64,000 nucleotides of DNA from Tabrizicola flagellatus (GTDB lineage: Bacteria; Pseudomonadota; Alphaproteobacteria; Rhodobacterales; Rhodobacteraceae): the NCBI RefSeq assembly GCF_046295235.1, contig NZ_JBKBLV010000003.1, positions 39,589 through 103,588 on the forward strand, in the 5' to 3' direction. Below, in pieces: positions 184 to 55,251 of this stretch. Within the stretch, counting starts at the first letter, position 1, and each line of letters begins with the position of its first letter. The notes below the pieces were generated by a model that had not been told where the DNA came from, ran no database searches, and saw only the letters and a list, made by a program, of their open reading frames with translations. Made by a program: the position numbers and the translations under genes.

Positions 184-1683
184 ATGCAAGAGATCGGTCA
201 CTGGATCAACGGAAAGCGCGTCGCCGGCACCTCGGGCCGCTTCGCCGATGTCATGAACCCCGCCACCGGCGAAGTGCAGGCGCGTGTTGCGCTGGCCACG
301 CTGGCCGAACTCGACCACGCCATCCAGGAGGCCGCCAAGGCCCAGGTCGGCTGGGCCGCCACCAACCCGCAGCGCCGCGCGCGGGTGATGATGGCCTTCG
401 GGGCGCTCATAAACGCGAACATGGACAAGCTGGCCGAGATGGTGGCCCGCGAGCACGGCAAGACCATCCCGGACGCCAAGGGCGACGTGCAGCGCGGCCT
501 CGAGGTGATCGAGGTCTGCATGGGCGCGCCCGCCATGCTGAAGGGCGAGGCGATGGACAGTGCCGGCCCCGGCATCGACCTTTACGCCATCCGCCAACCC
601 CTTGGCGTCGTTGCCGGAATCACGCCGTTCAACTTCCCTGCGATGATCCCGCTGTGGAAGATCGGCCCGGCGCTGTCCTCGGGCAACGCGATGATCCTGA
701 AGCCTTCGGAACGGGTGCCCTCGACCTCGCTGTTCCTGGCCGAACTCCTGCAACAGGCCGGCCTGCCGGATGGCGTCCTTCAGGTCGTCAACGGCGACAA
801 GGAAGTGGTGGACGGCATCCTGGATCATCCCGTCATCCAGGGCGTGGGCTTCGTCGGCTCCACACCCATCGCGCAGTACATCTACGGCCGCGCCGCGGCC
901 AACGGCAAGCGCGCCCAGTGCTTCGGCGGGGCGAAGAACCACATGATCATCATGCCGGACGCCGATCTCGACAAGGCCGCCGACGCGCTGGTGGGCGCGG
1001 GCTATGGCGCGGCGGGCGAGCGGTGCATGGCGATCTCGGTTGCCGTGCCGGTCGGCGAAAAGACGGCCGACGCGCTGATCGAGCGCCTCGTGCCGCGGAT
1101 CGAGAAGTTGAAGGTCGGCCCCTATACCGCTGGAAACGATATCGATTTCGGCCCGGTCATCACCAAGGCATCGAAGGACCGCATCCTGGGCCTGATCGAC
1201 TCGGGCGTCGAACAGGGCGCGAAGCTGGTCGTGGACGGGCGCAGCTTCAAGCTGCAAGGCTACGAGAACGGCTTCTTCGTCGGGCCGTCGCTCTTCGACC
1301 ATGTCACCCCCGACATGGAGATCTACAAGCAGGAGATCTTCGGGCCGGTCCTGTCCACCGTCCGCACCAAGTCTTATGACGAGGCGCTGAAGTTGGTGAT
1401 GGACAACGAATACGGCAACGGCACCGCGATCTTCACCGCTGACGGCGACACCGCGCGCGACTTCGCGAGCCGGGTGAACGTGGGGATGGTCGGCATCAAC
1501 TTCCCGATCCCGGTGCCCTTGTCCTATTTCAGCTTCGGCGGCTGGAAGAAATCGGCCTTCGGCGACCTGAACCAGTACGGGCCCGATGCCTTCCGCTTCT
1601 ACACCAAGACCAAGACGGTCACGGCGCGCTGGTTCTCGGGCATCAAGGAAGGCGCGAGCCTGAACTTCAAGGCACTGGACTGA
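184..1683 (+). CDS. mmsA: CoA-acylating methylmalonate-semialdehyde dehydrogenase
   Basis: ALDH fold: PLGVVAGITPFNFP, FVGST, AKNH, catalytic GERCMA, EIFGP, FSFGGWKKS. ATG at 184 follows a GGAGG RBS. Confidence 0.95.
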   Translation: MQEIGHWINGKRVAGTSGRFADVMNPATGEVQARVALATLAELDHAIQEAAKAQVGWAATNPQRRARVMMAFGALINANMDKLAEMVAREHGKTIPDAKGDVQRGLEVIEVCMGAPAMLKGEAMDSAGPGIDLYAIRQPLGVVAGITPFNFPAMIPLWKIGPALSSGNAMILKPSERVPSTSLFLAELLQQAGLPDGVLQVVNGDKEVVDGILDHPVIQGVGFVGSTPIAQYIYGRAAANGKRAQCFGGAKNHMIIMPDADLDKAADALVGAGYGAAGERCMAISVAVPVGEKTADALIERLVPRIEKLKVGPYTAGNDIDFGPVITKASKDRILGLIDSGVEQGAKLVVDGRSFKLQGYENGFFVGPSLFDHVTPDMEIYKQEIFGPVLSTVRTKSYDEALKLVMDNEYGNGTAIFTADGDTARDFASRVNVGMVGINFPIPVPLSYFSFGGWKKSAFGDLNQYGPDAFRFYTKTKTVTARWFSGIKEGASLNFKALD

Positions 1684-1701
1684 CCGCGCCGCAACCGACG
1701 C

Positions 1702-1725
1702 AAGGGGGCCTCCGGGCCCCCTTTT
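1702..1725 (+). terminator. Intrinsic terminator
   Basis: AAGGGGGCC-TCCG-GGCCCCCTT followed by TT, directly after the mmsA stop. Confidence 0.8.
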
Positions 1726-1762
1726 CGCTTGCGCCGCGCCCGCCGACCGGCATGATCGCCGC

Positions 1763-2413
1763 ATGTGGACCCTGCCCCCCGATCTTGCCTGCGACCTTGC
1801 CCCCGAAAGCTGCAAGCTGCTGACAGACCTGCCGAATCGGGTAGTCCCAAAGGGCCAGGTCCTGTTTCGGGCCGGCGATCTGGCGCAGGGCTTCGTCATC
1901 GTGCTCTCGGGCCGGATCGAGGTGCGCCTGACCGCCGCCTCGGGGCGTGAGATCCTCCTGTATGCGGTGGAACCCGGCGAAAGCTGCGTGCAGACGACGC
2001 TTGGCCTGATGGGGGACGAACCCTATTCCGGCGAGGCGGTGACGGCCTCCGAGGTCGAACTGGTGCTGATCCCCCGGCCCATCTTTGCCCGGCTTCTGGA
2101 CAGCGATCCGGGCTTCCGCGCCTTTGTCCTGCGTGCCTTCGGGCAGCGCATGGCGGAACTGACGCAGCTTTTGGAGCGAGTCGCCTTCGGCCGGGTCGAG
2201 GTGCGGCTGGCCGAGGCGCTTCTGGACCTGGCTGATGGCGAGCTGGTACAGGCCACCCAGGCAGAACTGGCCGCCCGCATAGGTTCGGCGCGCGAGGTGG
2301 TATCGCGCCGGCTGGAGGCCTTCGCCCGCCAGGGCTGGGTCAGCGTCGAGCGCGGCCATGTCCGCCTGCACGACCCCGAGGAAATCCGCCGCCTGGCCGC
2401 TCAGGCAGTGTGA
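1763..2413 (+). CDS. Crp/Fnr family transcriptional regulator
   Basis: cNMP-binding beta-barrel (VLFRAGD, VLSGRIEV) plus C-terminal HTH (TQAELAARIGSAREVVSRRL). Confidence 0.9.
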   Translation: MWTLPPDLACDLAPESCKLLTDLPNRVVPKGQVLFRAGDLAQGFVIVLSGRIEVRLTAASGREILLYAVEPGESCVQTTLGLMGDEPYSGEAVTASEVELVLIPRPIFARLLDSDPGFRAFVLRAFGQRMAELTQLLERVAFGRVEVRLAEALLDLADGELVQATQAELAARIGSAREVVSRRLEAFARQGWVSVERGHVRLHDPEEIRRLAAQAV

Positions 2414-2423
2414 TCTGGTCACA
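2409..2423 (+). promoter_or_regulatory. Putative Crp/Fnr-type operator TGTGA-N5-TCACA
   Basis: Palindrome overlapping the regulator stop codon, about 30 nt upstream of a GCTATT -10-like element that precedes the DUF2892 gene. Confidence 0.6.
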
Positions 2424-2486
2424 GACCGACTCGGTCGCCTTGTGCTATTCAGGAAGCATGGCCATGACGGCCGCAAGGAGGCTGAA

Positions 2487-2696
2487 ATGTTCAAGACCAA
2501 TGTAGGCGGCGTGGACCGCGTGCTGCGAATCGTGGTGGGCATTGCCCTGCTGGTCTGGTTCTTCGTCGACCGGGGTGAGGGCTTCTGGCACTACGCCAAG
2601 CTGATCGGCGTCGTGCCGCTGGCCACGGGCCTGTTCGGCACTTGCCCGCTCTATTCCATTCTCGGGATCTCCACCTGCCCGATGAAGAAGGCGTAA
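2487..2696 (+). CDS. DUF2892 / YgaP-like small membrane protein
   Basis: NVGGVDRVLRI start, two TM segments, LATGLFGTCPLYSILGISTCP motif, AGGAGG RBS. Confidence 0.9.
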   Translation: MFKTNVGGVDRVLRIVVGIALLVWFFVDRGEGFWHYAKLIGVVPLATGLFGTCPLYSILGISTCPMKKA

Positions 2697-2712
2697 CGAG
2701 TGCGGCGGCGGA

Positions 2713-5577
<2,865 letters not shown>

Positions 5578-5643
5578 GGCCGACCCCAAAGGTGCAGGCG
5601 CAAGACATAGGACGGTTTCGACGAGTCTCCAACCGGAAAAAGT

Positions 5644-5658
5644 GAACGTAGCATGAAC
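5644..5658 (-). promoter_or_regulatory. Alphaproteobacterial LexA (SOS) box
   Basis: GAAC-GTAGCAT-GAAC (GTTC-N7-GTTC on the minus strand), 67-81 nt upstream of uvrA. Confidence 0.85.
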
Positions 5659-5682
5659 ATGCTGCCGACGCGAAAAAGGGGC

Positions 5683-5719
5683 TTCACATTTTCATCTAGC
5701 AAGCTATATAGGTGAAAAT
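5683..5719 (+). promoter_or_regulatory. Putative sigma70 promoter with overlapping inverted-repeat operator upstream of the rhodanese gene
   Basis: TTCACA(5683)-N16-TATATA(5705). Inverted repeat ATTTTCATCTA-N10-TAGGTGAAAAT at 5688-5719, 10 of 11 positions match. Confidence 0.5.
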
Positions 5720-5737
5720 CCACAACCGAGGTGCTCC

Positions 5738-6097
5738 ATGTTCTCCTTTCTCCGTCCGGGCCAGACCACTGCACGTCCCAGCATCGCCGAAGTCGCCGAT
5801 CTGGTCGCGCAGGAAAGAATGGTTCTGCTCGACGTGCGCGAAGTCGCCGAGGCCAAGGCCTCGGGCATCGCCAAGGGCGCGCGGCTGATCCCGCTGTCGA
5901 TTCTGGGCATCAAGGCCGATCCGAAGCACCCGGACTGCGAACTGCCGCACGGGCTACCCATCGCGGTCTATTGCGCCTCGGGCGGGCGGTCGGGGATGGC
6001 GGCGGATGCGCTAACCCGGCTGGGCTACGGTCCGGTCTACAATCTTGGCGGCCTGCGCGACTGGGCGGCAGGCGGCGGCCAGGTCGTCGCCTACTAG
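5738..6097 (+). CDS. Single-domain rhodanese-like sulfurtransferase
   Basis: LLDVRE, GARLIPL, active-site YCASGGRS, VYNLGGLRDW. Confidence 0.9.
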   Translation: MFSFLRPGQTTARPSIAEVADLVAQERMVLLDVREVAEAKASGIAKGARLIPLSILGIKADPKHPDCELPHGLPIAVYCASGGRSGMAADALTRLGYGPVYNLGGLRDWAAGGGQVVAY

Positions 6098-7248
6098 AGC
6101 CGCAAGCGGCGGGCCTTCTGGACCGCGTGAACGGCGATTCCCAACGCTGAAAGCGTGACGGCAGCGATGGTCAGCCCGGCCGGCCCGGCGCTGGCCATGA
6201 GCGTGGCCAGAACCGGCGTGCCGGTCGTGGTGCCCAGATTGCCCAGTTGCGCCACCGCCCCGGCGGCGCGGGCGCGGTCCTCGGCGCTGGCGTTCAGCTC
6301 GGGGATCGCAGCAAAGCTCGCCCCCTGCACGATGCCGAGCGCGGCCGAAAGCAGGAAGCCCCCCGCCACCATCCCGGCCCCCTGCCCCCAGAACAGCCAC
6401 AGGAGCAGGAAGCCGGGGATCGCCACGGCATAGCCCGCCTGGACCAGCCGGACCGCGCTCATCCGGCCCAGGAGCCAGACCCCCAGCGTCAGCGAGACGG
6501 CGATGGAAACGAGCGGCATCCCCGCCGCTATCAGCGCGCGGTGGGTCGCGGGCGTTTCGGGCGGCAGCAGTGTCAGGACGGCGACGTAGAGGAAGGTATA
6601 GCAGCAGAACCCCATCGCCGGGGCCGCGAGGCGGGGCGAAGCGTAGATCCGGGCGTGCTGGGCCAGGAGGTTGTCCATCGGCAGCGCCTGGCCCCGGGGG
6701 TCGGGCGGCAGGGTCAGGGCGAGGATCGCCGCCAGCGCGGCCATCCAGGCGGCGTGGCCGAGGAAGAGGCCGGTCGGCGTTGCCATGGGTCCGATCAGCG
6801 CGAGGATCGTGTAGGTCACCCCGAAGAACGACGACCACAGCGTCATCGCCAGCGGCCGGCGGTGTTCGGGGGCAAGCGCGGCGATCATCGTCGGCCCGAC
6901 GACAACGATGGCAAGGTGGCTTGCCCCTTCCACGATCCGGCTGGCCAGCATCAGGGGGTAGGCGGGCAGCAGGCTTTGCAGCGCCGACATCGCCGCCCCT
7001 GCCGCCAGCGCCGCGACGATGGCCCGGCGCGGGCCAATCCGGGCGACCAGCAGGCCGGCGGTGGTGCCGAAGATCAGCCCGACCATGCCGACGATCGACA
7101 CGACGAGGCCAAGCGCGACTTCTCCCCCGCCGCCGTAGGTGGTGCGCAGGGTCTCGTAGAGGATCGAGATTTTCCCGAACTGGGCGGCGGCGCCAAGGCC
7201 GGCGGCCCAGAGAAGGAGGACGAGAAGCATGGGGGGAAGCGGGCGCAT
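6094..7248 (-). CDS. MFS transporter
   Basis: About 12 hydrophobic segments, motif-A-like LLVARIGPRR. Start MRPLPP chosen at 7248. Confidence 0.85.
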   Translation of the reverse strand: MRPLPPMLLVLLLWAAGLGAAAQFGKISILYETLRTTYGGGGEVALGLVVSIVGMVGLIFGTTAGLLVARIGPRRAIVAALAAGAAMSALQSLLPAYPLMLASRIVEGASHLAIVVVGPTMIAALAPEHRRPLAMTLWSSFFGVTYTILALIGPMATPTGLFLGHAAWMAALAAILALTLPPDPRGQALPMDNLLAQHARIYASPRLAAPAMGFCCYTFLYVAVLTLLPPETPATHRALIAAGMPLVSIAVSLTLGVWLLGRMSAVRLVQAGYAVAIPGFLLLWLFWGQGAGMVAGGFLLSAALGIVQGASFAAIPELNASAEDRARAAGAVAQLGNLGTTTGTPVLATLMASAGPAGLTIAAVTLSALGIAVHAVQKARRLRL

Positions 7249-7457
7249 GGGGCAGTCGTAACCGGAACGATCGCGCGACGCCAGAGCCTGTCCCGCTTGG
7301 ACAGATCGGGATAATCCTTCGGCGTCAGATGTTTGGCTGCGGGCGCCAGGGAATTCGCAAGAGTCTTCGCACGGCGACTCGGCCCGCTGCGGCCTTGTCG
7401 CAAAACGTGACTTCACAGCTTCATGTCGGACTTGCAAAGTTTTCATGAAAGTTCAGC

Positions 7458-7934
7458 ATGGCTTTCATGACACCTCTTGCCGCCGCCCTGCTGGCCACCG
7501 CCCTTCTCCTGGCCCCCGCGGCCCGGGCCGGCGAGCGATGCGCGCTGGTCGCCGGGCTGAATCGCGTCCTGACCGACAGCACCGCCTACGCGCCGGTCCC
7601 CTGCCCCGAGATCGGCTTCTCGGCGCTGGAGGGCGCGGCGGGCCTGCGCTCGCAGGCCGGGGCCTATTTCCCCGAGACCGGGCGGATCGAGCTGGCGCCG
7701 GATCTCGACCTGACCACCGCCTACGGGCAAAGCTTCCTCCTGCACGAGATGGTCCATGCCGCGCAGTTCGCGGAAGGTGCGGACGCCCGCGCGCCCTGCC
7801 CCGCCGCGCTGGAGGCCGAGGCCTACCGGGTGCAGGCCGATTTCCTGCATCGCGCCGGGCTGACCCGCGACGCGCTGCTGACCCGGATGCTGGGTGACCA
7901 GCTGGGCACCTGCGGGGCCGCGCCGGACTACTGA
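7458..7934 (+). CDS. Secreted HExxH protein (DUF6647-like)
   Basis: Signal peptide, LLHEMVHAAQ, CPAALEAEAY, several Cys. Confidence 0.7.
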   Translation: MAFMTPLAAALLATALLLAPAARAGERCALVAGLNRVLTDSTAYAPVPCPEIGFSALEGAAGLRSQAGAYFPETGRIELAPDLDLTTAYGQSFLLHEMVHAAQFAEGADARAPCPAALEAEAYRVQADFLHRAGLTRDALLTRMLGDQLGTCGAAPDY

Positions 7935-7941
7935 CCGGCGG

Positions 7942-8010
7942 CTCCTCGTCGGCTTCGCCGCTCGTCGCTGTAGGTTCCCCACCGACGAGGACCCGAAGGC
8001 GAACGAGGAG
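7942..8010. repeat. Four-heptamer palindromic repeat, copy B
   Basis: CTCCTCG-N12-CTCGTCG-N15-CGACGAG-N14-CGAGGAG between convergent genes. Confidence 0.8.
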
Positions 8011-8019
8011 GCGCAGGGG

Positions 8020-8577
8020 TCAGTCCTTCTGCGCCATGGCCCAGGTGACAACCGGAAAATCGGGATCGTCGGTCAGGTCGTCGTCGTCGCGCAGTTCCGG
8101 CGGCCAGGGAGTTTCGAGGTTCCGCCGCGCGACATGGCGGTTGCCCCATTGGTGCGCCTGGATCCGGTCCGCGGCGAACCCGGCCTCGATCAGCAGGTTC
8201 TTCAACCCCCGCGCCGTCCAGCGCGAACAGTCCACCGGGGCGGCGTGGTAGGGGATGAAGAAGGGCACCGCGAGCCAGAACCAGCCGCCCCTGCGCAGCA
8301 TCCGGTAGATGTTGCGGGTCGCGGCATGGGGGCGGTCCACATGTTCCCAGACCTGGTCCGCCATGATGAGGTCGAAGCGGACCACCTTGCCCGCCCCGTC
8401 CAGCATCGGCCCCTTGCAGGGGTCGAATTTCCAGCGGTTCAGCGCAAGATAGCTGCGGAACGGAAAGCTCTGGCCCCATTTTCCCGACAGTTCCAGCACA
8501 TCCAGCCGCTCGGGGCCGAGACTGGTGATCCAGTCCCGGCTGGCCTTCTGCACCACGACGCGGTTCAGCGACCGCAT
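8020..8577 (-). CDS. Class I SAM-dependent methyltransferase-like protein
   Basis: FDLIMADQVWEHV, RMLRRGGWFWLAVPF, DCSRWT. The ATG overlaps the lpdA stop (TGATG). Confidence 0.8.
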   Translation of the reverse strand: MRSLNRVVVQKASRDWITSLGPERLDVLELSGKWGQSFPFRSYLALNRWKFDPCKGPMLDGAGKVVRFDLIMADQVWEHVDRPHAATRNIYRMLRRGGWFWLAVPFFIPYHAAPVDCSRWTARGLKNLLIEAGFAADRIQAHQWGNRHVARRNLETPWPPELRDDDDLTDDPDFPVVTWAMAQKD

Positions 8578-9974
8578 CAGATGTGCAGCGCGCGTCCGTA
8601 GGCGTCGAGCACGGCCTCGTGCATCATCTCGGACAGGGTCGGATGCGGGAAGACGGTGTTCATCAGGTCTTCTTCCGTCGTCTCGAGCGTGCGGCCCACG
8701 ACATAGCCCTGGATCAGTTCCGTCACTTCCGCGCCGACCATGTGGGCGCCGAGAAGCTCGCCGGTCTTGGCGTCGAAAACGGTTTTCACCATGCCTTCCG
8801 GTTCGCCAAGCGCGATGGCCTTGCCGTTGCCGATGAAGGGGAAGCGGCCGACCTTGACCGTGTAGCCCGCGTCCTTCGCCTTCTGCTCGGTCAGGCCGAC
8901 CGAGGCTACCTGCGGGTGGCAATAGGTGCAGCCGGCGATGGAGTTGGGCTTGATCGGGTGCGGATGGCCGCCCGCGATCAGTTCGGCGACCATCACGCCC
9001 TCGTGGCTCGCCTTGTGCGCCAGCCAGGGCGCGCCCGCGATGTCGCCGATGGCGTAAAGCCCGGGAACCCCGGTGCGGCAGAATTCGTCGGTCACGACAT
9101 GGGTGCGGTCGATCTTCACCCCCAGCGCCTCGAACCCGAGGTTTTCCACGTTGCCGACGATGCCCACAGCCGAGATGACGGTGTCGAAGTCCTGCGTGGT
9201 GACCTTGCCGTCCTGTTCGATATGCGCGGTCACGCCCTTGCCGGGATGCCGGTCCAGCTTCTTGACCGCGGCCTTTTCCAGGATCTTCATGCCCTGCTTG
9301 ACGAACTGTTTCTTGGCAAAGGCGCTGATCTCGGCATCTTCAACCGGCAGGATGCGGTCCATCACCTCGACCACAGTGGTATCGGCGCCAAGCGTGTTGA
9401 AGAAGCTGGCGAATTCGATACCGATGGCGCCCGAGCCGATCACCAGAAGCTTCTTCGGCATCCGGCTGGCGACCAGCGCGTGCTTGTAGGACCAGACCAG
9501 ATCGCCGTCGGCCTCGAGCCCCGGCAGCTCGCGCGCGCGGGCGCCGGTGGCGAGGATGATGTGCTTCGCCGTCAACTCCTCGCTGCCCTTGTCGGTCTTG
9601 ACGCTGACCGTGCCCTGCTTCGGCAGCGTAGCAGTGCCCATGAACACGGTGACCTTGTTCTTCTTCATCAGGTGGCCGATCCCGCCCGAAAGCTGTTTCG
9701 CCACCGCGCGGCTGCGCGCGACGACGGCGGGCAGGTCGTAACCGATTGCTTCCGCCTTCAGTCCGAATTCCTTGGCGCGGTGCATCAGGTGGAAGACCTC
9801 GGCGCTGCGCAGAAGCGCCTTCGTCGGGATGCAGCCCCAGTTCAGGCAGATGCCGCCCAGATGTTCGCGTTCGACGATGGCGACCTTCAGGCCCAGCTGG
9901 CTGGCCCGGATGGCGGCGACATAGCCCCCCGGTCCGGCACCGATCACGATCACGTCGAAGCTTTGGGCAGCCAT
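8577..9974 (-). CDS. lpdA: Dihydrolipoamide dehydrogenase
   Basis: GAGPGGY, GGICLNWGCIPTK redox disulfide, HPTLSE. Confidence 0.97.
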   Translation of the reverse strand: MAAQSFDVIVIGAGPGGYVAAIRASQLGLKVAIVEREHLGGICLNWGCIPTKALLRSAEVFHLMHRAKEFGLKAEAIGYDLPAVVARSRAVAKQLSGGIGHLMKKNKVTVFMGTATLPKQGTVSVKTDKGSEELTAKHIILATGARARELPGLEADGDLVWSYKHALVASRMPKKLLVIGSGAIGIEFASFFNTLGADTTVVEVMDRILPVEDAEISAFAKKQFVKQGMKILEKAAVKKLDRHPGKGVTAHIEQDGKVTTQDFDTVISAVGIVGNVENLGFEALGVKIDRTHVVTDEFCRTGVPGLYAIGDIAGAPWLAHKASHEGVMVAELIAGGHPHPIKPNSIAGCTYCHPQVASVGLTEQKAKDAGYTVKVGRFPFIGNGKAIALGEPEGMVKTVFDAKTGELLGAHMVGAEVTELIQGYVVGRTLETTEEDLMNTVFPHPTLSEMMHEAVLDAYGRALHI

Positions 9975-48748: not shown

Positions 48749-49054
48749 CTATTTCGCGGCCGGTCCGAGCGTCAACCGGACTTCGGACGCGCAGGCCATG
48801 TAGCTGGCGCGGGCGGAATGGCCGTTGCCCGCAGAGGACCGGCCGGTCCGCTCTTCGGCGGCCACCCGGCGCAGCGCGAGGCAGGTCTGGACCTTGTCGG
48901 TGTAATCGGCCCTGAGGGCCTGGCATTCGGCCGAGGCCGAGCCGGTGGCGCCGGTCAGGGGGCAGTTTTCCGGCATCCGGGCGGCGGTCTCGGCCAGAAG
49001 GGGTGTGGCGCCTGCCGCGAACAGGGCAAGCAGCGACGCGATGAGGGTTTTCAT
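48749..49054 (-). CDS. Small secreted four-Cys protein
   Basis: MKTLIASLLALFAAGATPLLA signal peptide, 4 Cys, GGAGA RBS. Confidence 0.65.
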   Translation of the reverse strand: MKTLIASLLALFAAGATPLLAETAARMPENCPLTGATGSASAECQALRADYTDKVQTCLALRRVAAEERTGRSSAGNGHSARASYMACASEVRLTLGPAAK

Positions 49055-49297: not shown

Positions 49298-51316
49298 ATG
49301 TTTCGCTTCCAGGTTGATCTCCTCGGTGCCTGCCGGGTCGCGCGTGTCGCGACCGGAGAGGAACTGGCGTTCCGGACGCGGAAGACGCGGCTGCTTCTTG
49401 GCCTTCTCCTGCTGTCGCCCGGCCAAAGGATGAACCGCGAACAGCTTGCCTCGCTCCTCTGGGACCCCGCGCCCGAATCGCTGGCGCGTTCCAGCCTGCG
49501 GCAGGCGCTGCGCGAGCTGAAGGAAGTGCTGGGACCGGAGAACGAGGACGTGGTCGAGGCCGACCGCTTTTCCGTCGGTCTGAAGGCTCAGGCCTTCGAC
49601 CTGGACGTGCGCCGGTTCCGCGAGCTGATCGCGACGGCGGTGCATGACCAGAACGCGCTCCTGTCGGCTGCGGCACTGTGGCAGGGAGAGCTTTTCGGCC
49701 CGGCCCAGCCCAGCGCGCCGGTCTTCGAGGCCTGGTTGCAGATCGAACGGTCGCAGCTGCGGTCGGTCCTGACCTCGGCCCTGACCGACCAGCTGGAAAA
49801 GCTGATCGCAGCCAATGCCTTCACCGATACACGCATCGCCGAGGAATTGGTGCGGGTGGAACCCAGTCACGAACTGGCGCACCAGTTCATCATGCGGTTC
49901 CACGCCCAGCGCGGCGACCAGTCGGCGGCCTTGCGGCAATACGCGCTTTTGCAACAGGCGCTGGCCGAGGAACTGGACAGCGAGCCGAGCGAGGCCTCGA
50001 ATGCGCTGCTGGTCGCGATCAAGAGCGGCGAGGTCTCGTTGCAACGTCCGGCCACGGCGCCGGTGGCACCGGCCGCGCCCCTGACGCGCAGCGGCCCGCC
50101 GCGGATCACCATCCGCCCGCCGCTGACCCGCTACACCGACAACAGCAAGGACTATCTAGGCGAGGGCTTTGCTTTCCTGGCCAAGTCCTGCCTGTCACGG
50201 TTCCGCTGCTGGATCGTCATCCCCTGGCCATCGAGCGGCTTCGACTCGACCACCGCTGTGGACTTCACCGCCGTCGGCCAGGTGATCGACGCCGATTTCG
50301 CAGTGGACTGCGTGCTGGACTGGCGCACGGGCAGCGGCAAGCTGTTCGTCACCCTGATCGACTGCCGAGACGGCAGCGAGGTCTGGTCCGAGCTTTACCC
50401 GGTGGCCGAGCACGAGTTGCAGGAGGTCAGCTCCTCCGTCGCGGGCGCGGTGGCGGCGAACCTGGCCAGCCAGGTGAACCACATCACCCTGTTGCGCCAC
50501 GCGCGGTCCACGCCGGGCAATCCGGTGGCCTATGACCTGTGGCTGAAGGGACACCAGTTGTCGCGGCTCTGGTCGGCCGAGGCGGATGCGCAGGCCGAGG
50601 CTCTGTTCCTGAAGGCGATCGAGCTGGATCCGGGGCTGGCCGGGAGCCACGCGAGCCTGGCGCAGGTCCTGAGCACGCGCTGCATGGTCCGGCCGGGCTA
50701 TCCCAACCGCAAGGCCGATTGCGCCGCGGCCTTCAAGCACGCGCGCGAGGCCATCGCACTCGACCCCTACGATCCGCGCTGCCACATCAGCATGGCCTGG
50801 AACTGGGCCATCGCGCGGTCGCCGGAACGGGCCAATTCGCATTTCCGGCTGGCGGTGGACATGAACCCGCACGATGCCGAGACGCTGATCGCGGCGGCGA
50901 GCGGGCTGGGCTTCCTCGGCCATGTCGATCTGGCGAAGGACCTTGCCCAGCAGGCCCTGCGGCTGAACCCGATCTATCCGGAATATTACATCGCCTATCT
51001 GGCCGGCATCCACTTCATGGCGGGCGACCACGAGGCGACAATCGCCACGGTCGAGAAATGCCCCGATGGCTTTCCGGACCTCGGGGTCTGGGCGGTGGCA
51101 TCCTATGCGCATCTCGGCCGGGCAGAAGAGGCGGCGCGCGCCTACGGAACCTTCCGCCGGATCGCGACGCAGATGTGGGAGGGCGGCTCTGCCCCGACCG
51201 AGGAAGAGCTGGAGGCCTGGGTGCTGGACACTCTGCCGATCAACTGGCCCGAGGGCCGGCTGGCCCTGCAGAAGGGCATAAGGCTGGCCCGGGCCATGGC
51301 GGTAGAGGCCGCCTGA
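49298..51316 (+). CDS. SARP-type activator: winged HTH-BTAD, central domain and TPR repeats
   Basis: LGLLLLSPGQRMNREQLASLLW..ARSSLRQAL..LK, LWQGELF, EPSHELAH..IMR..ALRQY, TPRs (AIELDPGLA, AIALDPYD). ATG at 49298. Confidence 0.88.
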   Translation: MFRFQVDLLGACRVARVATGEELAFRTRKTRLLLGLLLLSPGQRMNREQLASLLWDPAPESLARSSLRQALRELKEVLGPENEDVVEADRFSVGLKAQAFDLDVRRFRELIATAVHDQNALLSAAALWQGELFGPAQPSAPVFEAWLQIERSQLRSVLTSALTDQLEKLIAANAFTDTRIAEELVRVEPSHELAHQFIMRFHAQRGDQSAALRQYALLQQALAEELDSEPSEASNALLVAIKSGEVSLQRPATAPVAPAAPLTRSGPPRITIRPPLTRYTDNSKDYLGEGFAFLAKSCLSRFRCWIVIPWPSSGFDSTTAVDFTAVGQVIDADFAVDCVLDWRTGSGKLFVTLIDCRDGSEVWSELYPVAEHELQEVSSSVAGAVAANLASQVNHITLLRHARSTPGNPVAYDLWLKGHQLSRLWSAEADAQAEALFLKAIELDPGLAGSHASLAQVLSTRCMVRPGYPNRKADCAAAFKHAREAIALDPYDPRCHISMAWNWAIARSPERANSHFRLAVDMNPHDAETLIAAASGLGFLGHVDLAKDLAQQALRLNPIYPEYYIAYLAGIHFMAGDHEATIATVEKCPDGFPDLGVWAVASYAHLGRAEEAARAYGTFRRIATQMWEGGSAPTEEELEAWVLDTLPINWPEGRLALQKGIRLARAMAVEAA

Positions 51317-51360: not shown

Positions 51361-51741
51361 TCAGCGGCAGTGCCGCATGAAATAGCGTGCGAGCAGCACC
51401 TTGAACCGGGTCGTCTTGCCGTTGCCGTAGGACGGTTCGTCCACCACGTCGGGCACGGTCTTCAGCACGTCCGCCGAGGGGATGCGGACATGCATCCGGT
51501 TCGGCGTGTCATAGACCGGCACGATCTGCACGCTGTCGGGGATCTCGCCGTTCGGGCCGGCGCCGGGACCGTCGTAGCGGTAGCCGTTGGCATGCAGCCA
51601 GCCGCGCGTGTCGTCGTTGAACTTCTTCCATTCCGAATTCGGCGTGTCCTTGAACACGCTTTTCGCAACTCGCAGGATCGCCTCGCCGGTCTGTTCCTGG
51701 TCGGCGATCGAATTGTTCTTGAGATTGAAGAACCCCACCAT
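51361..51741 (-). CDS. NHLP-leader-like protein, candidate RiPP precursor
   Basis: IPDSVQIVPVYDTPNRMHVRIP resembles the NHLP/nitrile hydratase alpha segment. C-terminus YFMRHCR. GGGAGA RBS. Confidence 0.65.
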   Translation of the reverse strand: MVGFFNLKNNSIADQEQTGEAILRVAKSVFKDTPNSEWKKFNDDTRGWLHANGYRYDGPGAGPNGEIPDSVQIVPVYDTPNRMHVRIPSADVLKTVPDVVDEPSYGNGKTTRFKVLLARYFMRHCR

Positions 51742-51873
51742 TCCGCTGTCTCTCCCTGTGTCCTGGCTGTTTCCGCCCTTGCTGTCGGACCACTATCGGG
51801 CCGGTTCGTGATGCCAGCGTGAAATGCGCCGGCAGCGTCCGATTCCGTCCTTGATCCTGTCCGTCATCCTGCC

Positions 51874-52944
51874 TTGAATACGCGCATGAAGCAAAATCCG
51901 GCCGAGATGATCGCCAAGATGGCGCGCGCCCTGGGCGAGGATTTCCACCTCATGGCCCTGGACGCACCCGAGGCACCGCTGTTCCTGGCCGTCGCCCTGC
52001 CGACGGAAGAGGGGGTGACGGGGTTGAAGCCGCGTCTGCCGGCGGGACGGGGGCTGACGCCGCAGCAGGCGATGCTGGCGGCGGGGGCCGAGGCGCTGGA
52101 GCTGCGGGCAAGCCTGGCGCAGCACCACCTCCCGGACCTGCGCACCCTGCCGCGGCGCGACGGGATCGCCATGGTCGCGGCGACCGATCTGGTCAGCGGC
52201 GAGACGGTCGAGGTGCCGGCGCAGGAGGTCTATCTCGACTGCGCGGCGGTCCTGGGCGAGCCCCTGCGCCAGGATGCCGATTCCACCGGCTGCGCGGTGG
52301 GGCCCGACCGCGACAGCGCCTTGGCGCGGGGCCTGTGGGAATGTGTGGAACGCGATGCGGTGGCGCTGTGGTGGCACGGTCGCCGGCCCGGCGGGGCGGT
52401 GGCGACCGAGATCATCGATGCGCACCAGCCGAGGCTCTTCTGGTGGCTGCACCAGCGCGCCCGCGAGACCCGGCTGATCGAGGTGACCAGCGACATCGGC
52501 CTGCCGGTGGTGGTGGCGGTGGCCGCCGATCCGGACGGGCGGAGGGTTGCCATGGGCTCGGCCGCGCGGCCGGTGCTGGCGGATGCGGCACTCGCCGCGG
52601 TGACCGAGATGGTGCAGACCGAGGTCAGCCTCGACCATGCGCGCGAGGCGGGCGACCCGGAGGCCGCCGCCTGGCTGGCCGCGGCCTCGCTGGCCGATCA
52701 GCCGCAGTTCCGTCCGGGGCCGGAACGGGCCACGCCGCCGCTGGAGATGGCCGGGCTGCTGGAACGGCTGGGCGGGCTGGGCCAGCGGGCGCTGGGGGTC
52801 GAGATGACCCTGCCGGGCGACCCGCTCCCCTCGGTGCGGGTCCTGGTGCCCGGGCTTTGCGCGATGCGGGGCCGGACGCAGTGCCCGCGCTTTGCCCGGC
52901 TTTGTCCCGACCTGCCGCCCCCGACCCTGCCCGAACCCTTCTGA
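51874..52944 (+). CDS. Stand-alone YcaO-family ATP-dependent peptide-modifying enzyme
   Basis: GRGLT..A...A.EALE, STGCAVG, ECVERDA, AVTEMVQ, Pro-rich C-terminus PPPTLPEPF. Start uncertain: TTG 51874, ATG 51886 or ATG 51907. Confidence 0.9.
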   Translation: MNTRMKQNPAEMIAKMARALGEDFHLMALDAPEAPLFLAVALPTEEGVTGLKPRLPAGRGLTPQQAMLAAGAEALELRASLAQHHLPDLRTLPRRDGIAMVAATDLVSGETVEVPAQEVYLDCAAVLGEPLRQDADSTGCAVGPDRDSALARGLWECVERDAVALWWHGRRPGGAVATEIIDAHQPRLFWWLHQRARETRLIEVTSDIGLPVVVAVAADPDGRRVAMGSAARPVLADAALAAVTEMVQTEVSLDHAREAGDPEAAAWLAAASLADQPQFRPGPERATPPLEMAGLLERLGGLGQRALGVEMTLPGDPLPSVRVLVPGLCAMRGRTQCPRFARLCPDLPPPTLPEPF

Positions 52945-52957
52945 CCGCGAGGCCGCC

Positions 52958-54625
52958 ATGCCGCCGATCTCGACCCCGCACAGCCTGTTCGGTCCGGCAC
53001 CCGCAGCGCCGAGGGCCGAAGCGGCGGGGGCCTCTCAGTCGGGCTACTGCTATCTGTTCCCGGATCTGGCCCAGCGGGCCGATGTCGGCTGCTTTCGCGG
53101 CACCACTCCGGCCGAGACCTTCCGGCGGCTCAGGGCCTTCGAGAAGGACAGCCGCACCGCCCTGACCACGCCGCAGGTTCTGCCGATGCGGCTGGCGCCG
53201 GTCTACACCTACTTCGGACAGTTCGTGAACCACGACATCTCGGCCCCGGTGGGCGATGTGGTCACGCGGCCCGCTCCGCCCGAGGGCACCGGCGTGATCG
53301 ACGCCGGGCTGCCGCCCGGGCTGGACCGGGTCCACCGGGCCTCGCCCAGGGTGATCCTGGCGAATTTCGTCAACGAACAGGCCGAGCCCCTGGCGCTGGA
53401 CAGCCTGTACGGCGACGGGCCGGACAGCGCCGACCCGGGGATCCGGGCGCTTTATGCCACGGACGGCAAGCGGTTCCGGCTGGGCAGGACCAGGCGCGAG
53501 CCGCCGGAATTCTTTGAGGAAAAGGGCCTGAAGCCCGCGCGCATCCATCACGACTGGGACGCGCCCGACATCCTGCGCCGGGACGGGCAGCCGCTGATCG
53601 CCGACCGGCGGAACGACGAGAACCTGATCGTCAGCCAGCTGCACCTGGCGCTGATGCTGGTCCACAACAAGGCCGTCGCCGCGCTGGAAGGCGAGGCCCC
53701 GGATGCGGCGACCTGTTTCGCCCGCGCCCGGCAGCTGGTCACGCTGCATTACCACTGGCTGATCCTGCACGATTTCCTGACGAACCTCCTGTCGCCTGCC
53801 ACTCTGGCGACGCCCTTCGCCAACCGGGCGCAGAAGCTGCCCGGCCCGCGGCTGGTACCCCTGGAATTCACCACTGCCGCATTTCGCTTTGGCCATTCCA
53901 TGGTCGGGGCCAGCTATGACTTCAACCGCAACTTCGGCCACGGCGGGCGGATCGACCGCCGGGGGGCCAAGCTGCAGGACCTGTTCGACTTCACCACCCA
54001 TCGCAACATGGGCCAGCCGGGCATGGCCGAGACGCTGCAACTGCCCGACCACTGGGTGATCGACTGGAACCGGATGACCCGGACGCCGAAGGGCGCCACC
54101 GGGGCCGAGCGGATCGACCTGACCTTCGCGCCGGGGATGCTGAGCGCGATGGGCACCTCCGAGATCGCCGTGCACGGGTCGATCCTGTTCCGCAACCTGA
54201 TGCGCGGCTTCCAGCGCCGGATCGCCTTTGGCCAGGTGCTGGCCGAGGCCTGCGGGCTGGAGGCGCTGGACGAGAACCAGCTGCGCGACGCGCTGCCGGA
54301 AAGCGCGCCGGGCATGCTGGGGCTGCGCGAGCTGGCCGAGGAGCTGGGCATGCTGGCCGAGACCCCGGCCTGGCTGTATGTCCTGGCCGAGGCGCGGCAC
54401 CATGGCGCGGGCGAGCGGCTGGGTCCGGTCGCCAGCGAGATCATCGCCGACACGATCATCGGCCTGATGCGCCACATGCCGCAGTCGATCCTGAACCATC
54501 AGGGCGGCGGTTGGCATCCGAGACTGAGCCCGCTCAAGGGCCCAGGCAAACGGGCGCTGACCTCGCTGCGATCCTTCCTGCGCTTTGCCGTGCAGGATTC
54601 CCACATGGATGTCGCGCCGGCGTGA
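52958..54625 (+). CDS. Animal-type heme peroxidase (peroxidase-cyclooxygenase superfamily)
   Basis: YTYFGQFVNHD (distal Gln/His), RRNDEN (distal Arg/Glu), AFRFGHSM (proximal His), TPAWLYVLAEA, LGPV. Confidence 0.9.
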   Translation: MPPISTPHSLFGPAPAAPRAEAAGASQSGYCYLFPDLAQRADVGCFRGTTPAETFRRLRAFEKDSRTALTTPQVLPMRLAPVYTYFGQFVNHDISAPVGDVVTRPAPPEGTGVIDAGLPPGLDRVHRASPRVILANFVNEQAEPLALDSLYGDGPDSADPGIRALYATDGKRFRLGRTRREPPEFFEEKGLKPARIHHDWDAPDILRRDGQPLIADRRNDENLIVSQLHLALMLVHNKAVAALEGEAPDAATCFARARQLVTLHYHWLILHDFLTNLLSPATLATPFANRAQKLPGPRLVPLEFTTAAFRFGHSMVGASYDFNRNFGHGGRIDRRGAKLQDLFDFTTHRNMGQPGMAETLQLPDHWVIDWNRMTRTPKGATGAERIDLTFAPGMLSAMGTSEIAVHGSILFRNLMRGFQRRIAFGQVLAEACGLEALDENQLRDALPESAPGMLGLRELAEELGMLAETPAWLYVLAEARHHGAGERLGPVASEIIADTIIGLMRHMPQSILNHQGGGWHPRLSPLKGPGKRALTSLRSFLRFAVQDSHMDVAPA

Positions 54626-54762
54626 TCGGCCCGGCAACGGGCTGGACAGAGGCAAGGTTTCGCTTCATAGACGCGCTCGTCGGGCGAGGTGCGCCGCGCC
54701 GGTCCCGGCCAGCTACGCAACGAAGATGCGCCGGTAACGGCCGAGCAGAGACGCCTTCGCCC

Positions 54763-55251
54763 ATGACCCCTGACCCGATCCCGTCACACCCGCGGTCGCC
54801 CGCCCTGGCCCGCCGTTTGGCCCTGGTCCTGATCCTGCCGCTGGGGGCCTGCGCCGACGCAACCAGCACCATGCAGCTTTACCCGCTGTCGGGCGAGATC
54901 GCGGATGCCGATCCGACCCTGGTCATCAAGGCGGTGGCGAAGAATACCAACAGCACCTCCGGCCCCCTGACCTTCCGCCTGCCCAAGCGCGGCAAGTGCA
55001 CCGGCACCTGGACCTCGCTGACCCCGCGGGTGGTGTCGAACTCGCAGGGGATGGCGCTGACGCTGAAGAAGACCGGGGGCGAGGTCGGCACCAAGCGCGA
55101 GACCGTGGCCGGGGTGAACAACGGCGAGATCTATGCCGTCTGCGACGACGGCACCCGGGTGCAGGGCACCTTCGTCATCGGGTCGGGCACGGCCAGCGGC
55201 ACGGGCCAGGCCAGCGACACCAACGGCAACGTCTACAAGCTTCTGTTCTGA
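54763..55251 (+). CDS. Putative lipoprotein
   Basis: Lipobox LGAC after a hydrophobic stretch, Gly/Thr-rich beta-type mature part. Confidence 0.7.
   Translation: MTPDPIPSHPRSPALARRLALVLILPLGACADATSTMQLYPLSGEIADADPTLVIKAVAKNTNSTSGPLTFRLPKRGKCTGTWTSLTPRVVSNSQGMALTLKKTGGEVGTKRETVAGVNNGEIYAVCDDGTRVQGTFVIGSGTASGTGQASDTNGNVYKLLF

Follow-up and report, generated by a model that had tools for sequence, protein, structure and literature searches.

What is the product of a small gene with no annotated family doing beside a YcaO enzyme and a haem peroxidase? This question is raised by a locus in the 64,000-nt stretch of the Tabrizicola flagellatus genome that was analysed here as a whole (the window). 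The small gene lies at positions 51361–51741 on the minus strand (126 aa, stop included, from the ORF list and the sequence); the protein sequence quoted in an earlier sequence-only reading agreed exactly with the DNA. Convergent with the small gene is a gene for a SARP-like BTAD and TPR regulator (49298–51316, plus strand; PF03704 at 1.1e-15 together with TPR matches). On its other side, a stand-alone YcaO of 352–356 aa, about 352 aa when counted from the conserved Met, is encoded from 51874 or 51886 to 52944 on the plus strand (PF02624 at 2e-38). The two genes diverge and are 132–144 bp apart depending on the YcaO start, and from the gene layout the intergenic region (51742–51885) presumably carries both promoters. 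A cytoplasmic haem peroxidase gene of the peroxidase-cyclooxygenase (animal-peroxidase) superfamily starts 13 nt past the YcaO stop (52958–54625, plus strand; PF03098 at 1.5e-10). The ribosome-binding site of the small gene had been called good; the predicted Shine-Dalgarno-like GGGAGAG, read from the sequence at 51750–51756 on the minus strand, is acceptable, but its spacing of 9–15 nt 5' of the ATG is at the long end of normal.

The small protein had no Pfam or NCBIfam match even at E≤1, scans of 41 homologues with both collections assigned no family, and searching the PDB by sequence and by profile gave nothing but noise (FlgE and L38, E of ~0.5). We conclude that it is a genuine, folded, unannotated small protein and, for the reasons developed below, probably the target of an undescribed protein-modification system.

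A word-indexed search retrieved 118 homologues, nearly all 125–128 aa long, with Tabrizicola and other Rhodobacterales as the main sources. With only 29 representatives at 50% identity found when 1.8 billion cluster representatives were scanned in full with HMMER, and with the gene present in 4 of 400 other genomes sampled from the family, this protein family (family 1) is narrow and patchily distributed; the window's own genome carries a single copy. In an alignment of 83 sequences, P88, Y120, F121, R123, C125 and R126 were invariant, and the C-terminal pattern was A-x-Y-F-x-R-x-C-R. The corresponding codons in the window, A118-R-Y-F-M-R-H-C-R126, span 51364–51390, with those of Tyr120 at 51382–51384 and Cys125 at 51367–51369, all on the minus strand. 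The expected invariant Y-x4-C-x end was present in 83 of the 83 sequences, and Cys125 was, as had been noted, the sole Cys of the 126-aa protein and its penultimate residue.

Other parts of the highlighted YFMRHCR ending fared less well: Y, F, R123, C and R126 are fixed, but Met122 is replaced by V, L, I, T or A in divergent members and position 124 varies among H, K, Q, R and S, which leaves the suggested His cross-link site unsupported. The Ser, Thr and Thr once thought notable in the tail (Ser104, Thr110 and Thr111) are not conserved and fall within residues 89–112, the most variable part of the protein. His124, Ser104, Thr110, Thr111 and Met122 were thus rejected as modification sites for want of conservation. 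The tail codons varied synonymously, with six Arg codons at the last position, TAT and TAC in a ratio of 9:9 and all three stop codons in use, indicating selection on the peptide and not on a DNA element. No conserved GG or GA cleavage motif was found in alignments of 31, 27 and 83 homologues, in agreement with the earlier remark that a double-Gly site is absent.

The BTAD-TPR, small, YcaO and peroxidase genes form a four-gene module that was found at every locus examined with enough DNA, so the proposed tie of the small protein to YcaO and peroxidase held in every context. The order peroxidase-YcaO, small gene, BTAD was kept amid unrelated flanks in L001, L002 and L004 and around the most divergent full-length member (P0135 in L038, 32% identity), and the divergent layout of small gene and YcaO was also seen in L001, L002, L004, L038 and L043. 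Among the loci examined, the module had no conserved protease, ABC/C39 exporter, TfuA, E1-like protein or FMN (SagB-type) dehydrogenase, and no TfuA gene stood beside YcaO in any of them. No second conserved small ORF that could be the true precursor was found in the module of the window, L001, L002 or L004. An EamA transporter gene accompanied the module in only three of the six fully read contexts (L001, L002 and L038).

Several observations were made on the surroundings of the module. An EamA/DMT transporter gene adjoins the BTAD gene in these three independent contexts, as does a gene for a BBE-type FAD oxidase in one (L001:10495-11211, L002:10538-11443, L038:12050-12967 and L038:10558-11907); such genes may serve in export or tailoring as optional extras. 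In L001:8359-8378, L038:8356-8375 and L043:1695-1714, the small gene and the convergent BTAD gene share 20 nt at their 3' ends, an arrangement that may cause transcriptional interference or coupling; in the window they are separated by a 44-bp gap with no overlap. A 101-aa secreted protein with four Cys is encoded to the left of the window module (48749–49054, minus strand) and a probable lipoprotein with an LPLGAC lipobox just after the peroxidase (54760–55251, plus strand). Both are kept in the syntenic L004 and are absent from L001, L002 and L038, and therefore probably lie outside the module.

A YcaO alignment search was run on one genome per species, and the best 80 loci were analysed by ORF, HMM and phmmer searches. 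Among these best 80 YcaO-related loci, 35, which include relatives and are not 35 independent events, combined YcaO, BTAD and peroxidase genes, and their small proteins fell into three families with 12, 18 and 5 loci. Carriers of the cassette are found across many Alphaproteobacteria and include Tabrizicola, Cypionkella, Hoeflea, Bradyrhizobium, Nitratireductor, Inquilinus and Microvirga. Family 1 (12 loci in Rhodobacterales and Aestuariivirga) comprises proteins of ~126 aa ending in ...LARYFMRxCR. Family 2 (18 loci in Bradyrhizobium, Nitratireductor, Inquilinus, Microvirga and others) comprises proteins of ~135 aa ending in ...R[IV]GDY[TS]xxxCx; in alignment A5, its Tyr at -7 and its Cys at -2 never vary, and their spacing is that of the window protein. 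Families 1 and 2 are barely alignable (hhalign P of 0.0066). Family 3 (five loci in Cypionkella, Pararhizobium, Hoeflea and Pseudoxanthobacter) comprises proteins of ~155 aa with tails ...YLLGTITFRRCR, ...TVTFQRCL or ...LLLKRCR and, on informal comparison, has no evident similarity to families 1 or 2 beyond the Cys-x end. The small protein had a Cys at -2 in 35 of the 35 loci that combine YcaO, BTAD and peroxidase. Since family 3 lacks the Tyr at -7, this residue is not universally required, and the suggestion that Tyr is a cross-link site is favoured by its invariance in families 1 and 2 but not by its absence from family 3.

Gene order differed among the families. The family 2 loci L071, L073, L075, L080, L083, L086-L088, L095, L098, L099, L103, L105, L109, L112 and L122 (small gene at ~7900-8900, minus strand) have the order YcaO(+) BTAD(+) small(-) peroxidase(-). 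The family 3 genes (L056:3348-3809, L057:7725-8255, L058:1508-1996, L060:1507-1995 and L076:7720-8193) encode 153–176 aa and lie just downstream of the peroxidase gene, their products ending in ...TFRRCR, ...TFQRCL or ...LLKRCR.

At some related BTAD-YcaO loci, the Cys was located at -3 or further in. Three of the BTAD-YcaO loci had no detectable peroxidase in the stretch examined and still encoded a near-terminal Cys, the tails being ...EYTINMCM in L059, ...IRACKR in L063 and ...SGCKR in L084; in L078, where a peroxidase was present, the tail was ...SCADGC. The L084 locus (612-6215) is from a Candidatus Acidoferrum metagenome-assembled genome (MAG) and has the BTAD(+), small(-), YcaO(+) layout of the window with a Peptidase_S8 subtilase upstream. 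[quoted passage not shown]

The relation to NHLP, which the sequence-only reading had proposed for the window protein, was evaluated with an alignment of 15 NHLP-type precursors from two genomes (A2). In a positive control, A2 recovered the alpha chains of nitrile hydratase (NHase) as well as 8TB1 and 9CJX, which are NHLP structures, with values of 1e-6 to 1e-13. In hhalign comparisons with A2, 31 close sequences gave a P of 2.4e-4, a more diverse family alignment gave a probability of 79.6% and an E of 1.5e-5 over the whole protein, and residues 28–95 gave 88.8% and 2.5e-6. When the query was split, residues 28–57 alone aligned to NHLP columns 24–41 (P of 2e-4), residues 66–90 alone to columns 41–63 (P of 4e-4), and residues 96–126 had no match to A2. 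The hhalign scores were 29–35 against a maximum of ~16 (15.8) for column-shuffled controls, and either half by itself also exceeded the controls, the two being collinear. The NHLP-like profile region found by hhalign covers residues 28–90 (51472–51660, minus strand) and comprises two helices (SEW.kF..DP..WL..GY), an insertion of ~11 residues and a strand motif, IP..V.IVPVYDT...MHVRIP. This profile-profile alignment reproduced, in the same register, the earlier proposal that IPDSVQIVPVYDTPNRMHVRIP matches the strand motif of NHLP without gaps, and the suspected likeness of the N-terminal helix was also recovered, with the SEW..F..DP..WL..GY helices aligning collinearly just upstream of the strand motif.

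Membership of the NHLP family itself was not supported. The small protein had no match to TIGR03793 at E≤1, its 31 homologues had none at E≤10, and a six-frame search of the genome with this model found no match. In the divergent members P0126 and P0131, TIGR03793 was the only NCBIfam match, with an E of 0.03–0.07 and 13–14 bits for a curated cut-off of 50.9 bits. A family HMM searched against 4402 ORFs found genuine NHLP precursors of L107 as its best non-family matches, and hhalign against true nitrile hydratase alpha subunits gave noise (score of 11.7). We rejected assignment to the NHLP family (TIGR03793), given the absence of an HMM match above the cut-off, of a Foldseek match to an NHLP structure and of a GG or GA motif, and the profile comparisons support a relation that is limited to remote similarity over residues 28–90. 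Of the proposed NHLP-leader-like identity, this remote similarity is what stands; HMM membership is not supported, and Foldseek did not confirm the fold.

Other proteins with NHLP-like features were encountered in these searches. The L107 locus (249-7544) of an alphaproteobacterial MAG is a canonical multi-precursor NHLP cluster with at least 14 tandem NHLP-type precursor genes, bearing GG or AG motifs, around a long fused YcaO, and served as an internal positive control. The BTAD and YcaO loci L123 (3101-3448) and L117 (3041-3430) encode NHLP-like small proteins (TIGR03793 E of 0.0015 and 0.13) that end in ...LGNCYYEDLPE or ...LGSCFYEDLPE with an internal Cys, each with a second small ORF beside it. 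The central part of the family profile is also matched, at E of 9.5e-12, by the metagenomic P0134 (1376 aa), in which G.LPAKVKVVGGYDGSNVQVLKTD is repeated at least seven times. This protein and P0141, both long repeat proteins, were rejected as whole-domain homologues since they share a repeated short strand motif only, and the P0134 repeats are a warning that the strand motif 'IP..V.IV..YD' is not by itself confined to NHLP-like proteins.

An AlphaFold2 model built with 83 sequences had a pLDDT of 90.9 and a pTM of 0.83, and the small protein is accordingly predicted to be one compact domain with a fold that has no recognisable PDB representative. The model consists of a strand (residues 4–7), a helix (12–27), two short helices (37–43 and 45–51), a strand (54–57), an ordered non-regular stretch (58–89), a helix (90–94) and a last helix (109–121) that includes Tyr120 and Phe121. 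Lower confidence was restricted to residues 122–126, and in the model the exposed "core" is about five residues, M-R-x-C-R. Foldseek searches of the PDB with this model and with one of pLDDT 79.5 gave no match at E<1, the lowest E being about 10, and the NHase alpha and NHLP structures (8TB1, 9CJX, 1AHJ and others), which were present in the PDB copy, remained unmatched. The check for an NHLP-like fold thus gave a split answer, in which the profile alignment agrees remotely but Foldseek finds no NHase-alpha or NHLP fold. Likewise, the picture of a structured scaffold tied to YcaO and peroxidase stands, but its 23-residue tail is not a free core, as residues 109–121 are modelled as a confident helix.

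The YcaO of the window has no fused E1 or RRE domain. It matched the SagD-type model TIGR03604 at 4.8e-32, below that model's cut-off, and its best PDB relatives were YcaO domains from azoline-forming enzymes, namely LynD, TruD and MusD. The first YcaO motif reads EALEL and not ExxER (alignment A4), which leaves the catalytic competence of the enzyme unproven. For the peroxidase, the only PDB sequence match was peroxinectin A (6erc), and the peroxidases of all three cassette types retained Q-x3-H on the distal side, RN[DE] with the catalytic Arg, and R[FL]GH[SA]M with the proximal His.

Taken together, we favour the explanation that the small protein is a substrate of YcaO and peroxidase, cyclised and then oxidised at Cys125, with a probability of roughly 0.55. 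The earlier proposal of Cys as the YcaO target fits, in that the penultimate Cys is the one feature common to all three families, and its presence at -2 in all 35 loci across families that are barely or not alignable favours this explanation. It is further favoured by the linkage of the module whatever its flanks, down to 32% identity of the small protein; by a YcaO closest to azoline-forming cyclodehydratases with no TfuA and no other small ORF beside it; by the conserved catalytic residues of the peroxidase; by a model of pLDDT 90.9 in which only residues 122–126 are less ordered; by tail residues that are invariant while their codons vary synonymously; and by the precedent of NHLP-type precursors, which bind YcaO as folded proteins (PMC12455567). 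The free variation of residue 124 is in keeping with chemistry that involves just a backbone amide or carbonyl and the thiol.

The modification may proceed as follows. Residues 1–121 would form the compact domain, of which residues 28–90 appear distantly related to nitrile-hydratase-like leader peptides. This folded domain probably docks on the RRE-less YcaO as a recognition handle that replaces the missing RRE or E1. Only the last five or so residues, M-R-x-C-R, would protrude. From the chemistry of the family and its nearest relatives, YcaO with ATP would phosphorylate the amide between residue 124 and Cys125, and attack by the Cys125 thiol would yield a thiazoline. The co-transcribed peroxidase would then oxidise the thiazoline, giving a thiazole or some other form, whether oxidised or cross-linked; this is the weakest step, the role of the peroxidase being a guess. 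As the conserved module has no protease, cleavage motif or dedicated exporter, the product may persist as a small protein in modified form, or host proteases may release it, and we regard the two fates as equally likely. The BTAD-TPR regulator would control the locus and, more speculatively, could sense the tail.

In terms of recognised precursor systems, the evidence was mixed. [quoted passage not shown] Machinery for leader removal or export was not part of the cluster, EamA genes being nearby in three contexts and a subtilase gene in the distant L084 only. Of an azoline-forming system, the putative YcaO cyclodehydratase (PF02624 at 2e-38) and a candidate substrate Cys (Cys125) can be assigned from the sequence; no E1-like or RRE partner and no FMN (SagB-type) dehydrogenase was found in the window module or homologous modules. 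The absence of a conserved azoline dehydrogenase, protease or exporter weakens the case for a substrate, as do the EALEL motif of YcaO, the missing Tyr at -7 of family 3 and the Cys at -3 or further in at some related BTAD-YcaO loci. Also against it, RiPPs do not typically have an invariant "core" or a precursor that is fully folded.

A more far-reaching version, which we hold only tentatively, is that the cassette makes protein-sized ribosomal products of a class not described before. The stand-alone YcaO and the cytoplasmic haem peroxidase would together alter the penultimate Cys of a folded, uncleaved small protein derived from NHLP, creating a novel heterocycle or cross-link at its C-terminus that may involve the Tyr at -7, and the modified end would serve as a cofactor-like group or as a ligand that the TPR domain of the adjacent SARP-type regulator senses.

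We also considered whether the small protein is an adaptor that activates or targets the stand-alone YcaO, with the true substrate encoded elsewhere. YcaOs are known to be activated or targeted by E1-like/Ocin-ThiF or TfuA partners, and the YcaO of the window is without any recognition domain. The predicted compact and highly conserved fold of the small protein would suit such a role, one would expect such invariance in an enzyme subunit sooner than in a core peptide, and cleavage site, protease and exporter are all absent. However, it has no Pfam or NCBIfam similarity to known YcaO partners, the module contains no other conserved small ORF, and an adaptor hardly explains why a Cys-x end is the sole feature common to three barely alignable families. 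We consider this role unlikely.

It is similarly improbable that the protein is a redox partner or sensor centred on the peroxidase, with the C-terminal thiol as a reducing substrate or sulfenylation site, for example in an H2O2 relay to the BTAD-TPR regulator, and with YcaO doing something else. The near-C-terminal Cys persists in L059, L063 and L084 with no detectable peroxidase, which ties it to YcaO rather than to the peroxidase, and YcaO is the most constant partner. Nevertheless, the small gene adjoins the peroxidase gene in the same direction in families 2 and 3, and the catalytic residues of the peroxidase are conserved. A lone exposed Cys beside Arg residues would have a lowered pKa, and TPR domains often bind C-terminal peptides, both of which would suit a sensor.

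Equally small is the chance of a canonical NHLP-type RiPP, whose leader would be cut off and whose modified peptide (about the last 5–15 residues) would be exported as a bioactive compound or signal. Its presumed core sits in a confidently predicted helix packed in the fold, its tail is invariant rather than variable, and neither a double-Gly or other conserved cleavage motif nor a protease or ABC/C39 exporter was found in the conserved module. These features outweigh the remote NHLP similarity, the acidobacterial L084 with its subtilase and a small protein matching TIGR03793, the EamA transporters that flank the module in L001, L002 and L038, and the alphaproteobacterial precedent of trifolitoxin, in which a YcaO-like enzyme acts and a thiazoline lies near the C-terminus. 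Finally, the idea of another conserved small ORF as the real precursor was rejected, as none exists in the module.

Full-text literature searches (YcaO with haem peroxidase, BTAD and Alphaproteobacteria) found no published description of a cassette of YcaO, haem peroxidase and BTAD or of the small-protein family. YcaO enzymes rank among the major sources of the backbone chemistry found in natural products. In every well-understood case known to us, the substrate is a short peptide, recognition falls to a fused or separate domain, and the oxidase is a flavin or P450 enzyme. In the cassette described here, a stand-alone YcaO is locked to two partners, a haem peroxidase from the animal-peroxidase superfamily and a fully folded small protein whose only universal feature is a Cys next to the C-terminus. 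If the predicted chemistry holds, the cassette would represent a new mode of substrate recognition, a new role for bacterial haem peroxidases and a new kind of C-terminal protein modification.

Among known systems, NHLP-type precursors are established YcaO substrates that bind as folded proteins, with leaders docking on MprC (PMC12455567). As in the NHLP/proteusin systems (TIGR03793; MprE7 with MprC, PDB 8TB1), a long folded leader-like domain is encoded beside YcaO in the window. By hhalign (E of 1.5e-5 to 2.5e-6), both kinds of protein share the collinear patterns 'D.eF...L..DP...L..lG' and 'lP..v.v.VV..t....y.vlP', and both carry a Cys C-terminal to the domain, the cyclisation of which is a prediction in our case. 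The small protein differs from NHLP in its 11-residue insertion, extra C-terminal helix and lack of a GG site, in having an invariant tail of ~5 residues where NHLP precursors have a variable core, and in matching neither TIGR03793 nor, by Foldseek, 8TB1, 9CJX or NHase alpha. The enzymes differ as well, with an RRE-less YcaO and a haem peroxidase in place of an FMN dehydrogenase.

Bottromycin biosynthesis has the stand-alone, RRE-less YcaOs BotC and BotCD and the haem enzyme BotCYP: the terminal Cys of the core is cyclised to a thiazoline by a YcaO, and the haem enzyme then oxidises it. The window module resembles this system in combining a stand-alone RRE-less YcaO with a haem enzyme, its chemistry being predicted from the genes. 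Bottromycin differs in its short precursor with a follower peptide, its P450, and its dedicated hydrolases and other tailoring enzymes, and the window YcaO is not a close homologue of the bottromycin YcaOs, having LynD and TruD as its best PDB matches. Trifolitoxin and the tiarins are made from TfxA (core DIGGSRQGCVA) with the YcaO-like TfxE, a thiazoline being proposed at the Cys at -3 (bioRxiv 10.64898/2025.12.02.691738). The shared features are the alphaproteobacterial origin, the YcaO-like enzyme and a Cys at -2 or -3; unlike the window module, the trifolitoxin system has a 42-aa TfxA, the FMN dehydrogenases TfxB/C/F and an export pump, with no peroxidase or BTAD.

YcaO enzymes also act on whole folded proteins, as in the McrA thioglycine and the thioamidation of uL16 (PMC13063428). 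Those proteins are thioamidated, as a rule with the help of TfuA or a sulfur donor; the window module has no TfuA, and its hallmark is the side chain of the Cys at -2. As with McrA and uL16, the substrate would be a folded protein and the modified product would remain a protein. In sum, we place the cassette with the YcaO-modified, NHLP-related ribosomal products, as a probable variant.
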